From assembly GCA_048939995.1 (NCBI GenBank), contig JBHLOY010000001.1, positions 462,449 through 526,448 of the forward strand: a DNA stretch of 64,000 nucleotides, given 5' to 3'. Source of the stretch: Promethearchaeota archaeon. GTDB lineage: Archaea; Asgardarchaeota; Lokiarchaeia; Sigyniarchaeales; SOKP01. Below are positions 28,753 through 36,019 of this stretch, piece by piece (position 1 is the first letter of the stretch; every line of letters starts with the position of its first letter). The notes beneath the pieces were generated by a model. The model did no database searches. It was not told where the DNA came from and saw nothing but the letters and a program-made list of their open reading frames with translations. The position numbers and the translations under genes are program-made.

Positions 28753-30030
28753 TTAGGTGCCTTCTTCGTAGCCATGGATGTAGTTATATTGTTCCTCGGT
28801 TAGTTTATCTATCTCAACGCCCATTGACTGAAGCTTTAGAAAGCCTACTCTATTGTCAATCTCGACAGGTACATCAACCATACCTGGTTTTAATGAGCCT
28901 CTGTTTTTGACGATATATTCAGACATTAAGGATTGAAGACCGAACGACATATCCATTACTTCAGCAGGATGCCCTTCGGAGAGCACTAAATTAGCTAATC
29001 TTCCCTTAGCAAGTAAATAAATTCTTTTATCATCAGGAAAAGTGATTTCTTCGACGTTACTTCTTATTGGCTTGATTTCTTTAGCGTATTCATAAATTTC
29101 CTTAGTTGGAATCTCAATGTCAAAATGTCCTAGATTACCTAAAATGACTCCATCTTTAAGAGCATCGAAGTTTTCTTTTGTAGGTAATATCACATGTTTG
29201 CATCCCGTCGCAGTTAAAATGATATCTGCGATGGGTAAAGCCTCTGAAATAGGCATAACTTGGTATCCTGCAAATTTAGCTTGGAGTGCTTTAATCGGAT
29301 CAATCTCAGTAACGATTACATTTGCACCCAAACCACGTGCTCTCAATGCCATCCCGCTACTGCAATGACCGAATCCTGCCACGATAACATTCTTACCAGC
29401 AAATAAAACGTGCATTCCATAAATTGCGGCTACGATGCCTTGCCCAGTTCCTAATTCATTGTCAAACTGATTTTTGCATCTCGCGTCGTTTACTGGGAAG
29501 AGTGGTACTTTTAAGTCCCCCCCTTTGTCCATTGCTCTAAATCGCTTAACTCCAGTTGTAGTTTCTTCTTGACAGCCAATAATAATCCCTTCAGTGATCA
29601 ACTCGGGAAATTCTTTATGTGCGGTTACTATCATATCTGCTCCATCATCAATCAAAATATTAGGTTTAGCACCTAAACATTGTCGAATGCACCAATAGAA
29701 TTCCTCATCAGTATTTCCGTGCCAAGCAAATACGTTTATACCTTCTTTTACCAATGCAGCTGCTACATCATCCTGAGTTGATAAGGGATTACTACCGCAT
29801 AGATAAACTTCAGCGCCTCCTGCTTTAAGAGTCCTTGCTAAATTTCCAGTTTCTTTAGTTATGTGTAAACATCCTGCAATTATTATACCTTCCAAGGGTT
29901 TTTCCTTTTGAAACCTTTCACGAATTACCTTAGCAGTGATAGGCATTTTACTTTCTGCTATATATAGTGCTTCCATCCCTTGATCAGCTAAATTTTCATC
30001 TGCAACTTTATAATTTACCATTTTAGTCAC
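28753..30030 (-). CDS. ahcY: Adenosylhomocysteinase
   Basis: CLH..KET, SNPLSTQD, EETTTG, GHFDIEI, GRLANL and GHPAEVMDMSF motifs. Confidence 0.97.
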   Translation of the reverse strand: MTKMVNYKVADENLADQGMEALYIAESKMPITAKVIRERFQKEKPLEGIIIAGCLHITKETGNLARTLKAGGAEVYLCGSNPLSTQDDVAAALVKEGINVFAWHGNTDEEFYWCIRQCLGAKPNILIDDGADMIVTAHKEFPELITEGIIIGCQEETTTGVKRFRAMDKGGDLKVPLFPVNDARCKNQFDNELGTGQGIVAAIYGMHVLFAGKNVIVAGFGHCSSGMALRARGLGANVIVTEIDPIKALQAKFAGYQVMPISEALPIADIILTATGCKHVILPTKENFDALKDGVILGNLGHFDIEIPTKEIYEYAKEIKPIRSNVEEITFPDDKRIYLLAKGRLANLVLSEGHPAEVMDMSFGLQSLMSEYIVKNRGSLKPGMVDVPVEIDNRVGFLKLQSMGVEIDKLTEEQYNYIHGYEEGT

Positions 30031-30158
30031 TTAAATATATGTATGAATATTAATTTTAATTAATTAATAAACCTTTTTTTGGTTGAGTGCAAATATTTTT
30101 ATAAATAAGTTTACATTTAATTAATAATAATCACATAATTTTGTAATATTGTAATTAT

Positions 30159-31442
30159 ATGAGTATAGATAAAAAACTAAAAGAAATCCAAAAATTTATA
30201 AAAAATTTAAATGGAAAGACCAAGTTCATTGTATCACAAAATTCACATGCGTTAGGACTATCTAGACAGACTTATCAAAACAAACTTGATAGTTTGAGAG
30301 AGCAGAAAATAATTACTAATTTCACAATAAACATTAATCCAGATATTCATCCCAACAACTTGAAGTATGTAATGCTTGAAATTAAAACTAACCCAAAAGA
30401 ACCTGAGCTGGTTAAGGAACTATTAGAAATACCCCAGTTAAGAATGTTGGATGGAATAATTGGAGATTTCTCCTTATTCTCCTTGTTTATCTTTAAATCC
30501 CCTGAAGAATATTTTCAGATATTAAATAAAATAGATAATATAATGGCAAAATCATACTTTAAAAAATATAAAATAATTGAAACTATAAAGGTATATAAGA
30601 CAAATGGAATTAGCTTAAGAAAATCTAAAGTGTCTTATGAAGAAGAACTCGTGGAAAAATTAAATCATAAGTTTCAAAATCAAGATGTTGATGAAAATGA
30701 TAAGGTAATTGTTAAGATGTCAGAAAAAGTTGATTTAAATGAAATTGCTAAAAAAATGCAGAATATTGAGTACGATCCTAAGAGATTTCCGGGCCTTATT
30801 ATAAAGATAGTAAATAGTAGTATTAAAGTTATACTTTTCTCAAATGGGAAAATAATTATCACTGGTTTAAAGAATGCCGCAAATGTAACTCAAATAATCA
30901 ATAAAATAATTGAAAGCATAAAAAAAACTGGAATAAGTTTAGATAAGAAAAATTTTGACTTAAATTATGAGATTGATGATATTGATTATACAATTTTAAC
31001 CATTTTGCGAGATAATCAAGGTCCTAAACCAATATCCACCTATGAAATAAGTAGATTTTTTAAAGATCGATACAAAACAGAAATTTCTCAATCAACTATT
31101 CATAATAGAGTGAAAAAATTAGAAAAAAAAGGAGTTATTTTAAATTATGCAATAAATTTTTGTCCAAAAAAAATCGGTTTTGAAGGAAAATATCTCCTTC
31201 GAATAAAACCAAAAGATCCATCAAAATATAATGAACTCGCCCTCAAACTAGATATGAATAAATATATTACTGATTTATTTAGAATAGGTGAGCAATTTGG
31301 TTTATTTGCTATTGTCAGAGTAGAAAAAATTGAAGAATATGCGAGGTTTATTAAGGATTTATACACGTCAGAAGAAATTGAAGATACCTTTACAAATTTT
31401 GTTTTAGACGAATTAATTACCTGTAATAATTTTGTGTTATAG
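30159..31442 (+). CDS. Tandem Lrp/AsnC transcription regulator with an internal TBP-like repeat
   Basis: Two HTH+RAM modules (LSRQTYQNKLDSL...IITNFTI and ISQSTIHNRVKKLEKKGVI) flank DLNEIA...EYDPKRFPGLIIKI....VILFSNGKIIITGLK. Confidence 0.85.
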   Translation: MSIDKKLKEIQKFIKNLNGKTKFIVSQNSHALGLSRQTYQNKLDSLREQKIITNFTININPDIHPNNLKYVMLEIKTNPKEPELVKELLEIPQLRMLDGIIGDFSLFSLFIFKSPEEYFQILNKIDNIMAKSYFKKYKIIETIKVYKTNGISLRKSKVSYEEELVEKLNHKFQNQDVDENDKVIVKMSEKVDLNEIAKKMQNIEYDPKRFPGLIIKIVNSSIKVILFSNGKIIITGLKNAANVTQIINKIIESIKKTGISLDKKNFDLNYEIDDIDYTILTILRDNQGPKPISTYEISRFFKDRYKTEISQSTIHNRVKKLEKKGVILNYAINFCPKKIGFEGKYLLRIKPKDPSKYNELALKLDMNKYITDLFRIGEQFGLFAIVRVEKIEEYARFIKDLYTSEEIEDTFTNFVLDELITCNNFVL

Positions 31443-31517: not shown

Positions 31518-33596
31518 ATGACTCATTTTTATGAGATATTAAATAAAAAGATCGGTTACTCTAGAATAGGTAGAATTATTTTATCGAAGGATTCTAAGAA
31601 GTATGTAAAGACACCTAATGTTATAATTCCTATGCGAAACTTTTTGATGAAAAATGTAAATTACTTAGATGAATTTGAGGATCATGAAGTCTTTATAATA
31701 TCAAAAGAAGTTTTTCTAAAAATTGGTTTTTTTAGAGAAAAATTTAGAAATACTGCTTTTATTTTCACTCACATGGGTACATTAGATACATTTATAGAGA
31801 TTATTGAAAAAAATATTAATGCCTTCTCTAAAGACAATATTATACTGTTAATTCCATTTAATATCCCTACAAGTAGTATTAGCGAAACCTTTACAAGACA
31901 TGAGATTGAACACTATCTTGAATCTGTACGCAATCTTTTACAGAAGTATCAAGAACTCAATTTTGGGTTGTCCATTAAAATTTTTGAATCGCCAGCATTA
32001 TTCGATCTATATAAAGAGTTAATAGTAGAAAATAAAAACATTAAGCTATTAAATATAGCTGACTTTTTTGATGTCAATATTAATTTTAGAAAGATTGTAG
32101 AACAAATTGTAGATGTCAAACAAAATCTTGATAATAATTTAGTTTTAATGGCTTCAGGACGAATTATTCCAAAGTATTTCCCGATTTTAGTTTACCTCGG
32201 CATTGATCTTATTGATAGTTCTTACTTATTATATTTATCATCAGAAAATTTTTATGATACAATCGAGTATCTCTATCCCATTTATAAAGTAAGCTATTTT
32301 CCATGTTCATGTTTTGCATGTAAAGATAAGTTAAAAAACATACAAAGCGCTAAATATTCAATTGAAAAGCTAGATTACTTATGTCTTCATAATCTAATAA
32401 CCGCGAAAAATTACATGAATAAGACAAGGCAGTATTTAAAAGCAGATGACTTTCGAGCATTTGTGGAAAAATCTTCCTTTGATGATATTCTTATCATTTC
32501 GATTCTAAAGATATTAGATCGTCAATATTTTAATTTAATAAGGTTTGAAACACCAATCGCAGAAAGTTTTTCAACCATTAAATGTTTTGGTCCGTCTTCT
32601 TATTATCGACCTGATTTTCAACAATTTAGAGAGAGAGTGATTCAGCATTTTTTACCCGAACCATGGACAAAGTTGATCATCATTTTACCTTGTTCTTCAA
32701 AAAAGCCCTATTCTAAATCGAAATCTCATAAAAAATTTCAAAGTGTTTTAAGAAAATTCGCGGATTTTCCTGACTTTCAAGAAATCATATTAACCTCACC
32801 TCTTGGAGCTATTCCAAGACAATTAGAAAATATTTATCCTGTAAATTCATATGATATCTCTGTGACTGGTTATTGGGACCATGAAGAGATCAAATTAGCT
32901 TCTGAAATGTTAATACAGATTTTAAAGAAGTATAACCAAAATATTCCAATTATATGTCATACAAAAGAGAAGGGATATAAAGATATTATCTTGAAAGCAA
33001 AATCCCAATTGCCTCATAAATTTTATTTTACTGATGTAAATGGGAGTCTGATCAGTTTTAGCTCATTAAAGTCGCTTGAAGATAATGTTAGAAACTTGAA
33101 AGCTAATATAGAACTAGAAGATAAACCTAGCGAAATCCTCTTCTCAAAAACATGGATCCGAAAATTAAATAAGATCACCGACTATCAATTTGGCCCTAAT
33201 GTGGGAAAAAGTGTTTTTTCAAAGGAAGTAAAGGTTAAAAAAGATAAACATAATGGGAATCTTAACATAATTAATAATAAAAACAATAAATTAATTGGAA
33301 AGTTTTTAAGTAAAACTGGTCAGATTGAATTTACTTTATATGGAGCAGAATTAATATTAGAAAGTAGGATAAACTCAAACATCTTAGTTTTCAATGGAGA
33401 TATAATAAAGGGAAATACCATTTTTAGACCAGGAATTATTGAATTCAGTTCTAATCTTATACCAAATAATTATGCCTTGATATTAGATCAGACAAAGGAT
33501 AGAGTTATTGGGCTAGCTAAATTAATAATCGGTTCAAATTATTTAAAAAACTCAAAAAGCGGGAGGGTTGCTACAGTTTATGATAAAATCAGATGA
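31518..33596 (+). CDS. arcS: Archaeosine synthase subunit (TGT-like + DUF5591 + PUA-like)
   Basis: LVYLGIDLID, CSC..C..H, LPCSSKKPYSKSKSH, TSPLG.IPR.LE..YP..YD..VTG.W and DYQFG motifs. Confidence 0.85.
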   Translation: MTHFYEILNKKIGYSRIGRIILSKDSKKYVKTPNVIIPMRNFLMKNVNYLDEFEDHEVFIISKEVFLKIGFFREKFRNTAFIFTHMGTLDTFIEIIEKNINAFSKDNIILLIPFNIPTSSISETFTRHEIEHYLESVRNLLQKYQELNFGLSIKIFESPALFDLYKELIVENKNIKLLNIADFFDVNINFRKIVEQIVDVKQNLDNNLVLMASGRIIPKYFPILVYLGIDLIDSSYLLYLSSENFYDTIEYLYPIYKVSYFPCSCFACKDKLKNIQSAKYSIEKLDYLCLHNLITAKNYMNKTRQYLKADDFRAFVEKSSFDDILIISILKILDRQYFNLIRFETPIAESFSTIKCFGPSSYYRPDFQQFRERVIQHFLPEPWTKLIIILPCSSKKPYSKSKSHKKFQSVLRKFADFPDFQEIILTSPLGAIPRQLENIYPVNSYDISVTGYWDHEEIKLASEMLIQILKKYNQNIPIICHTKEKGYKDIILKAKSQLPHKFYFTDVNGSLISFSSLKSLEDNVRNLKANIELEDKPSEILFSKTWIRKLNKITDYQFGPNVGKSVFSKEVKVKKDKHNGNLNIINNKNNKLIGKFLSKTGQIEFTLYGAELILESRINSNILVFNGDIIKGNTIFRPGIIEFSSNLIPNNYALILDQTKDRVIGLAKLIIGSNYLKNSKSGRVATVYDKIR

Positions 33597-34671
33597 AGAT
33601 AATCCATTAGTTAACAAAATAAAAGATATTAGAGAAAAAGCTATTTCAAAAAAACAAAGTTTTACTGAAGATCAATTGAATAAACCAGTTAGTTTCTGGA
33701 TAAAAACTGATCGCCTTATAAATGAAGAAGGAAAAGAATTTACAATCATTTTAAGAACCAGAGGGTGTAATTGGGCTCTAAGTAATAGTGGGGGATGCTC
33801 AATGTGCGGTTATATAAATGATTCAGGTCCGAATCTTCTAACCAGCAAGCATTTAATAAATCAAATCAATCATTCATTCCAATCAAAAGAAATTGAAAAT
33901 AAGAAAGAAAAATTTGTGTTCAAAATTTTTAATTCTGGTAGTTTTTTTGATGAGAGTGAAATCCCTAAAGAAGCTAGAGATTATATTTACCAAAAAGTGC
34001 AAGAATATGATAATATAAAAGAATTTGTAATAGAATCTCGTCTAGAACATTTAAGCAAAGAAAAAATAGTAGATCTAAAAAAGAACTTAGATAATAAGTA
34101 TATTGAATTAGCAATTGGTCTTGAAACAGTTGATGATTACATAAGAAATAGATATATTAACAAAGGGATGCTTTATAGTGATTTCAAAAAAATTATAGAG
34201 CTTACGAAAAAAGTTGGAATAGGTATACGGGCATACTTATTGTTTAAACCACCTTTTTTAAATGAGCAAGGAGCTATAGATGATTGTATAAAATCAATTA
34301 GATCACTGATTAATTTGGGAATTAATACAATATCAATTAACCCATTAAATATTCAGAAAGACACTCTTGTGGAATATTTATGGTATCAAAACCGTTATAG
34401 GCCTCCTTGGTTCTATTCCTTATTTAAGTGCTTAAGGAATATATATGACCTAAGTAATAATTCAAATGTTCCTCGTATAATTTCGGATCCGACTGGAGCA
34501 GGGACTAAAAGAGGAATTCATAATTGTTTAAAAAGAGAGTGTAATCATAGAATGATAACTATCCTCAAGGACTTTGTCTTATCCCAGGATTTCAACTATG
34601 TAGATAATAAAGAAGATTACCAAAACTGTGATTGCTTGTTAAAATATCGCCTTCAAAAAAATTATCATTGA
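33568..34671 (+). CDS. Archaeosine biosynthesis radical SAM protein RaSEA
   Basis: LRTRGC.W....GGCSMCGY, KIFNSGSF, YLLFKPPFL, YRPPW and RG.HNC motifs; adjacent to arcS. Confidence 0.9.
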   Translation: MLQFMIKSDEDNPLVNKIKDIREKAISKKQSFTEDQLNKPVSFWIKTDRLINEEGKEFTIILRTRGCNWALSNSGGCSMCGYINDSGPNLLTSKHLINQINHSFQSKEIENKKEKFVFKIFNSGSFFDESEIPKEARDYIYQKVQEYDNIKEFVIESRLEHLSKEKIVDLKKNLDNKYIELAIGLETVDDYIRNRYINKGMLYSDFKKIIELTKKVGIGIRAYLLFKPPFLNEQGAIDDCIKSIRSLINLGINTISINPLNIQKDTLVEYLWYQNRYRPPWFYSLFKCLRNIYDLSNNSNVPRIISDPTGAGTKRGIHNCLKRECNHRMITILKDFVLSQDFNYVDNKEDYQNCDCLLKYRLQKNYH

Positions 34672-34780
34672 TTTTGCTTAAAATTTTCTATTTTTGTAAA
34701 ATTTCACCCCAAAAAGATTATATTTAAATATGACCTTTCAATTTTCTACTCTATATTTTATTAACTAAATAGGGTAAACC

Positions 34781-35029
34781 TTGAAAAACTGGATTAAGCT
34801 TAACCTATTCTATCTCGGAAAATCTAAGAAACATCATATTTTCAGAGTAAAAAAATGGAATAAAAATTTTGAAATAGTTTTTCATAAATCTATTTTCAAT
34901 GAAAGTTATAAAGAGATTGGTGTTATCAAAGAAATTTTTGGTCCTATTAATTTACCTTTCATATCAGTTAAAGCTTCACCTAATCAACAATTTAGTTTAG
35001 ATAATCAATTTTATATTAAAATTCGCTAA
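34781..35029 (+). CDS. gar1: H/ACA RNP component Gar1-like protein
   Basis: IG.I.EIFGP...P.ISVK motif; conserved position upstream of tfb. Confidence 0.75.
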   Translation: MKNWIKLNLFYLGKSKKHHIFRVKKWNKNFEIVFHKSIFNESYKEIGVIKEIFGPINLPFISVKASPNQQFSLDNQFYIKIR

Positions 35030-35077
35030 TATTTTCTTGGAATTTTAAAAATTCAAAGGGTGTAGAATATTTCGATT

Positions 35078-36019
35078 TTGAATGAGCTTAAGAAAAAGCA
35101 AATCGACATTGATGATGAGATTTGTACCGAATGTGGAAAAAAAATTATAAAGAATGTTGAATCTTTATTAGTTTGTGAGGAATGTGGCTTAGTCCATTCA
35201 GATAATCATATTGATCGTGGTCCCGAATGGAGAGCTTTCGATGCTGATCAAAAGAAGAAGAGAACTAGAACTGGAGCACCGATGACTTACATGATACACG
35301 ATAAGGGTTTAAGTACAATGATTGATTGGAAAAATAGAGATATTTTTGGGAAGGAAATTCCTGCTAAGTCAAGAGGGCAAATATATAGACTGCGTAAATG
35401 GCAAAGTCGAATAAGAGTATCAGATGCTACAGAAAGAAACTTGACTTTTGCATTAAGTGAGTTAGATCGTATGGCTTCTAACTTAGATCTGCCCAAAAAT
35501 CTTCGTGAATGTTCTGCAAAAATATATAGAGATGCTGTTGATGCACATCTTATCAGAGGAAGGAGTATTGAAGGTGTAGCTGCTGCAAGTTTATATGCGG
35601 CATGCAGAATGTATAAAATACCTAGAACCCTTAATGAAATTGCTGAAGTAGCGCGTGTTGATAAAAAAGAAATTGGTAGATCATTCCGTTTTATATCAAA
35701 TGAGTTAATCCTCAATTTAAATCCAACTAAACCACTTGATTTTCTCACAAGGTTTATATCTGAATTAAAGCTTACTCAAGATTGTCAAAAAGTCGCTAAA
35801 AAAATTATAAAAATAGCAGAAGCATATGGATTAACTTCAGGTAGAGGACCAACGGGAGTGTGTGCTGCAGCTATATATGCAGCTAGTATTTTAACTAAGG
35901 AGAGGAGAACTCAGAGAAAAATAGCAAATATAAGTCAAGTTACTGAAGTCACAGTTAGAAATAGATTCTCAGAATTAATAGAAAATTTAGATTTAGGTAT
36001 TTCAATAAAGAAGAAGTAA
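35078..36019 (+). CDS. tfb: Transcription initiation factor IIB
   Basis: Zn ribbon [32 protein letters not shown] and cyclin repeats. Confidence 0.97.

Follow-up and report, generated by a model that had tools for sequence, protein, structure and literature searches.

What can one repeat of the TATA-binding protein (TBP) do inside a gene-specific regulator? TBP is among the most conserved proteins of archaea and eukaryotes, and a single lobe working alone on promoter DNA would bear both on the origin of the two-lobed TBP and on the diversification of TBP-related factors. The question is raised by a locus in the window analysed here (a stretch of 64,000 nucleotides from a Promethearchaeota archaeon of the Lokiarchaeia), where an initial annotation made from the letters alone had described an Lrp/AsnC regulator carrying a TBP half-domain, and had suggested that the half-domain might rebuild a TBP saddle on dimerisation or compete at TATA boxes.

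A TBP N-lobe between two Lrp modules

The open reading frame at 30159-31442 (+ strand) is uninterrupted and encodes a 427-aa tandem Lrp/AsnC regulator with an internal TBP N-lobe (P0001), in which the peptide quoted by the initial annotation is present. Along the chain lie Lrp module 1 (HTH and RAM; aa 1-153; 30159-30617), an extra acidic spacer helix specific to the insert's long form (aa 154-182; 30618-30704), the TBP N-terminal lobe (aa 183-260; 30705-30938) and Lrp module 2 (HTH and RAM; aa 270-427; 30966-31442), all on the + strand. The lobe was assigned from Pfam and from its modelled fold: i) PF00352 matched aa 185-256 as a single repeat with 68 bits (E 6.6e-19; cut-off 22.9 bits); ii) the top phmmer matches in PDB were 35 TBP chains; iii) the four best VIA-align matches of the AlphaFold model of aa 150-275 were all TBP-containing chains; and iv) the closest superposition of the modelled insert was with Sulfolobus TBP, in its N-terminal repeat (1mp9 residues 18-102; Z 8.5, rmsd 2.7 Å, 85 aligned). 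Moreover, F210 (30786-30788) and F227 (30837-30839) are matched in the phmmer alignment by the intercalating phenylalanines of P. woesei TBP, F43 and F60, and the stirrup reads Y-x-P-x-x-F-P-G as in TBP. The spacer helix stands in place of the saddle-centre strand of TBP.

The two flanking Lrp modules are both complete, the first being divergent. Module 2 passed the cut-offs of PF01037 (RAM) and HTH_24 (PF13412). Module 1 fell under the Pfam cut-offs, but a profile built from residues 1-155 matched FL11/PH1519 and LrpA across HTH and RAM (E 5e-11, 119 residues), and RAM secondary structure is visible in its model. Thus the single TBP repeat, its fold, its two phenylalanines and its position between two HTH-RAM modules are all as the initial annotation had read them. 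The T/S-G-x-Y-D effector loop is altered in both RAM domains (to G-D/E-F-S and G-E-Q-Y/F-G), with the aspartate replaced in each, yet RAM dN/dS is 0.06-0.09. A siroheme decarboxylase (NirDL/AhbAB), indicated by a weak Foldseek row, was rejected since no catalytic His motif was seen and the gene context is ahcY, for S-adenosylhomocysteine hydrolase. At a pTM of 0.40 the full-length model leaves the domain arrangement in P0001 uninterpretable, and a homodimer prediction for aa 156-268 gave no answer (score 0.00, mark 0.42) and was weighed neither way for binding.

The same protein was found on three contigs, with two 99-100% identical copies on further contigs, and its architecture is common to ~90 independent sequence clusters, of which those with names are mostly Promethearchaeota/Lokiarchaeia. 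The fusion is therefore not an assembly chimera, an explanation that the initial annotation had left standing.

Origin, loss and parallel captures of the lobe

Compared with the TBP of its own genome, the lobe shows 42% identity to the N-repeat and 31% to the C-repeat. In the lobe tree, all captured halves nested with Lokiarchaeia TBP N-lobes (support 99/92); this tree and an AU test (p 0.03) rejected a C-lobe origin, while a single origin of the Lrp inserts was not rejected (AU p 0.49). Judged by these trees, the lobe derives from the N-terminal repeat of a Lokiarchaeia TBP. A G-I-x-L stretch bounds the insert on both sides; a single copy is present in the empty allele and another in TBP, where helix 2 ends, which suggests capture guided by microhomology. 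In the ancestor of one Lokiarchaeia allele lineage, the organism's own TBP N-lobe would have recombined in frame into the inter-module linker at the short G-I-x-L present in both genes; origin and junction are observed here, and the recombination step is the presumed one. The N-lobe is the lobe that is contiguous in the sequence of TBP, which would explain why captures are biased towards it.

A normal two-repeat TBP is also encoded in this genome (G000:C37), so the fusion is not a substitute for a missing TBP. The canonical TBP gene (L002:694-2082) lies directly downstream of a gene for a Rab-like small GTPase, and its product has an acidic N-terminal tail. In many Lokiarchaeia (family f1 and the order) the number of full TBP paralogues is 2-5, and the lobes of some have diverged strongly, a situation also known from haloarchaea. 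In G149 the TBP gene (L158:1426-2109) is apparently split into frames of 130 and 81 aa by a frameshift or an assembly error.

Orthologues with and without the insert were compared, as the initial annotation had proposed. Among the 127 family genomes with the gene, 37, spread over five genera, carry the insert, and ~70% of the family is without it. Insert-free tandem Lrp proteins (310-350 aa) occur across the phylum, and the TBP piece is absent from the tandem Lrp of all 14 distant Asgard genomes checked; therefore the insert-free state is ancestral. On the tree of the Lrp part, all 36 insert alleles tested fell within one clade of 47 (support 98/61), which also holds three nested insert-free groups (4 changes), each with its own deletion junction. 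The lobe has thus been lost independently at least three times.

On the tree of the downstream arcS gene, genera were monophyletic and the insert required 11 changes, and on the Lrp tree monophyly of genus g1 was rejected (p 7e-49); alleles have thus undergone in-place swapping between genera. The neighbouring ahcY gene (28753-30030 and orthologues) was exchanged between Lokiarchaeia genera as well (13 changes for g1 on the DNA tree), while arcS, two genes from ahcY, tracks genus labels. Since ahcY was swapped equally freely and independently, the locus is one that recombines, and a selective sweep behind the spread between genera is not shown. Two genomes look recombinant: G142 (L039) combines the insert with a promoter of basal type and a first HTH that is divergent, and G128 (L057) has an insert-clade-like promoter and no insert.

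Further single N-lobes came to light in Lokiarchaeia through family searches, a survey that covered ~25 genomes, some of them selected because their match counts were odd, and that is no census. They fall into three types: i) a 507-510 aa protein of three Lokiarchaeia genomes (L173:2777-4300, - strand; L180:3897-5420; L181:3890-5419), possibly a GTPase-gated transcription factor, that starts with a TBP N-lobe and also has a Rab-like GTPase and an HTH of ArsR type; ii) a ~320 aa protein of genus g1 with a C-terminal TBP N-lobe (L171:3760-4719 and L175-L179; six genomes checked, three more of the same length), whose non-lobe part had no Pfam or PDB match and is by our own reading AbrB-like at its start and longin-like in the middle; and iii) stand-alone N-lobe genes of 115-118 aa in two genomes (L174:3844-4191; L172:3682-4038; - strand). 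Other genomes have lobe-free orthologues (~228 aa) of the ~320 aa protein, and a lobe-free relative is present in this genome (G000:C11:146949-147605). The two stand-alone genes share one locus, with pyrB and a gene for a ribosomal protein close by. In the lobe tree each host group formed its own clade among N-lobes, and fused lobes in other hosts have also lost the central Asn; the Lrp, GTPase/HTH and longin-like captures are, by this phylogeny, independent. Region searches of the protein database, at low sensitivity, returned no further fusion types, and a feature search of the ESM Atlas returned only Lrp clusters, below 0.8. Its recurrence in at least two further regulator-like hosts suggests that a TBP half has been reused as a portable DNA-gripping part of regulators.

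The ahcY locus and its candidate promoter elements

Divergent from the regulator lies ahcY (28753-30030, - strand; likely real start ATG at 30021). The gene was near the regulator in 90 of 90 family loci and divergent from it in 14 of 14 distant Asgard loci. This conserved pairing makes ahcY the probable target, which strengthens the initial annotation's suggestion, and from it we infer that the regulator controls ahcY. Downstream of the regulator (31518-36019, + strand) runs a series of ArcS-like (DUF5591/TGT), radical SAM, gar1 and tfb genes, all on the regulator's strand; arcS was nearby in 82 of 90 loci, and the radical SAM protein is probably RaSEA.

The gap between ahcY and the regulator measures 128 bp (30031-30158) and holds four candidate elements. 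From consensus and conservation, a candidate ahcY promoter (30064-30082, - strand) is formed by the TATA TTTATTAA at 30071-30064 and a purine-rich BRE-like stretch upstream. Just upstream of this BRE is a central AT-rich element (30089-30103; consensus GCAAATATTTATATA), a candidate operator or new TATA box. The third, TAACATTTAATTAATA (30111-30126, + strand), is conserved in every allele type and is a candidate TATA of the regulator's own promoter, while an imperfect palindrome confined to the insert clade (30141-30155, + strand; consensus TTGCAAAATTGTAA) is a candidate autoregulatory site just before the start codon.

The TATA-like motif at 30089-30103 was present in 30 of 35 insert alleles, 10 of 11 secondary-loss alleles and one of 26 basal alleles, with a mismatch of 6% in insert alleles, where it is strongly conserved, and of 15% after loss. 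Element and insert arose on the same lineage, and so represent one event, not a correlation. The archaeal Lrp activators Ptr2, LysM and Ss-LrpB act just upstream of the BRE (PMC2995911), and the element occupies the matching position; it could be where the lobe binds, an altered site for the HTH domains or a newly arisen TATA box. No usable regulon emerged when the genome was scanned for operator motifs.

Possible function of the lobe and comparison with known systems

Selection on the lobe was estimated as dN/dS over 14 sequence pairs, and residue frequencies were taken over 90 proteins. The lobe (0.37; sheet core 0.29) evolves faster than the Lrp domains (0.06-0.20; in module 1, 0.11 for HTH and 0.06 for RAM) and slower than the added spacer helix (0.47) and the linker (0.52), while canonical TBP N-lobes are at 0-0.09. 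Thus the lobe is under purifying but relaxed selection. With surface classes assigned from general knowledge of TBP-DNA structures, the DNA-facing positions were the most constrained non-turn class (0.23; 0.18-0.29), followed by the core (0.35; 0.29-0.42; a value inflated by I/V/L swaps), the convex surface (0.42; 0.34-0.51) and the saddle centre (0.54).

The residue pattern follows the same division. F210 is present in 100% of the proteins and F227, at the conserved aromatic position L5.1 for nucleic-acid binding, in 86%, being replaced in some lineages; a basic residue occupies position 209 in 97%, 216 in 86% and 231 in 91%. On the other hand, DNA contacts that are invariant in TBP drift in the fusions (T81 in 54%, T93 in 38%, R74 mostly K), and in place of the saddle-centre N-V-V-A-T stand mainly charged or polar residues. 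The Lrp fusions have lost N36, V38 and T40 (numbering of the genome's TBP) and Q127-N128 of the second repeat; retention is 18% for N36, at most 7% for V38 and 1% for N128, residues that are invariant in 15 Lokiarchaeia TBPs. At the acidic-pair positions of the stirrup, the first is N in 79% and D in 14% and the second is E in 58%; P0001 has D206 and K208, an N-lobe-type stirrup (D-P-K; pattern N/D-P-E/K) in which the two TFB-binding glutamates are absent. The signature of TFB binding is two glutamates of the C-lobe stirrup, C.L3.2 and C.L3.4 (PMC7221094). Two repeats, the saddle-centre Asn/Val and the acidic stirrup pair, by which a canonical TBP is known, are thus all missing from the insert. 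By its residues, the lobe retains half of the DNA-gripping face, without the means to rebuild a saddle or to recruit TFB.

We therefore favour, at a probability of roughly 0.45, the reading that the lobe is a monomeric accessory module that binds the minor groove or bends DNA. The host would be an ancient pseudo-dimer of two Lrp/AsnC modules in a single chain; most likely it acts on the divergent ahcY promoter as well as on its own, and it probably senses a methyl-cycle metabolite. The lobe would fold alone, needing no partner repeat; the HTH domains would place it on the DNA between the two genes, and there its concave face (F210, F227, R209, K216, K231) may grip the minor groove of adjacent AT-rich DNA, and the added affinity or kink may tune TBP/TFB assembly at the ahcY promoter. 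It would be an optional add-on and not a substitute TBP.

Several lines of evidence are consistent with such an accessory module: i) its fold, its N-lobe origin and the pairing with ahcY; ii) the constraint on the DNA face, with F210 invariant and the basic residues at 86-97%; iii) the F227-equivalent aromatic, a universal nucleic-acid signature of TBP domains (PMC7221094); iv) the binding of duplex by the single TBP-fold lobe of RNase H3 as an accessory domain (PMC4132731); v) the same lobe in two further hosts, one with an ArsR-type HTH; and vi) the TATA-like element conserved in the insert clade at the position used by archaeal Lrp activators (PMC2995911). Against it stand the dN/dS of the lobe relative to that of TBP, the drift at T81, T93 and R74 and the replacement of F227 in some lineages, the repeated deletions with most of the family insert-free, and the limits of the promoter evidence: element and insert are one event, G142 has a basal-type promoter, and 10 of 11 loss alleles keep the element.

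The main rival is a tolerated passenger, captured in frame by accident, kept only to stay folded and in frame, slowly decaying and being deleted, which we regard as possible though on balance unlikely. It would account for at least three deletions with differing junctions and for a lobe dN/dS near that of spacer and linker; spread between genera requires no benefit, as the neighbouring ahcY swaps as freely and independently, and donors are common where TBP paralogues are numerous. Against it, the exposed DNA face is under more constraint than the core and convex surface, and an exposed Phe is invariant in 90 clusters; the lobe also persists in five genera, and is retained in two other regulator-like hosts at a dN/dS of ~0.13-0.3.

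The concave face might instead contact protein, binding full-length TBP or another initiation factor, which would be recruited to the ahcY promoter or sequestered there; this would amount to Ptr2-type TBP recruitment in covalent form. TBP self-association uses this same concave surface, which is conserved in the lobe. Lrp activators such as Ptr2 rely on TBP contacts (PMC2995911). But not only hydrophobic residues of the face are conserved, the basic ones that contact phosphates are too, which fits DNA better, and the surface used by eukaryotic-type partners (helix 2 and the convex side) is the least conserved part, so we consider this improbable. A saddle rebuilt from the lobes of two protomers, which as a gene-specific TBP would read a TATA box and recruit TFB, is very unlikely: both intercalating Phe are kept, Lrp proteins oligomerise (PMC2995911) and the insert clade has its TATA-like element, but the saddle-centre residues and the TFB-binding pair are lost and a normal TBP gene is present. 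Of the two functions proposed by the initial annotation, the rebuilt saddle is accordingly not supported, and competition at TATA-like DNA is possible in a weaker, tethered form.

In a broader and more speculative form, which we hold doubtful, Lokiarchaeia repeatedly recruit their own TBP N-lobe as a portable module that bends TATA-like DNA (in Lrp, GTPase-HTH and longin-type hosts), and at this locus the lobe would act on the TATA-like element that has become conserved next to the ahcY BRE, and alter initiation. If true, close relatives of eukaryotes would, by capturing the lobe repeatedly, offer a case of basal transcription parts rewired into gene-specific control; if lobe recruitment is the right reading, a basal factor was turned into part of specific regulators. 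Even as a mere passenger, the lobe would illustrate cleanly how a domain is captured and lost, though that would be of modest significance. Since nature provides matched alleles of this locus, lobe-bearing and lobe-free, next to a likely target promoter, a few purified proteins would suffice to test the question.

A literature search, covering few subscription journals, found no report of an Lrp-TBP fusion or of Asgard regulators that had captured the lobe repeatedly, and none describing such a regulator in connection with S-adenosylhomocysteine. Compared with archaeal Lrp/AsnC regulators (FL11/PH1519, PDB 2cyy and 2e1c; P. furiosus LrpA, 1i1g; Ptr2; Ss-LrpB), P0001 has similar HTH and RAM modules, is likewise divergent from a metabolic gene and has candidate sites beside the BRE and at its own start, but differs in having two modules per chain, altered effector loops and a TBP lobe in the linker. 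With the TBP N-lobe it shares the fold, both intercalating Phe, the stirrup and descent from Lokiarchaeia TBP, but it has one lobe, has lost the saddle centre and the TFB-binding acidic pair, and evolves much faster.

Single TBP domains are known from stand-alone archaeal proteins, RNase H3, glycosylases and one winged-helix singleton (PMC3597702). The monopartite proteins include halobacterial TbpA, recently derived from TBP, and single-domain proteins of Thermococcales, and the rare protein that joins a winged helix to a TBP domain is Q8TJ64_METAC (PMC3597702). All have a single TBP domain like the P0001 lobe, in Q8TJ64_METAC also joined to a DNA-binding domain; but these are stand-alone or singleton cases, whereas the P0001 lobe is internal, belongs to a regulator family of ~90 clusters and has parallel captures elsewhere. 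The closest functional model is the N-domain of RNase H3, a single TBP-fold lobe that contacts nucleic-acid duplexes across the minor groove (PMC4132731): like the lobe of P0001, it is an accessory duplex-binding lobe on another protein, but it diverged anciently, binds RNA/DNA hybrids and sits on a nuclease instead of a transcription factor.
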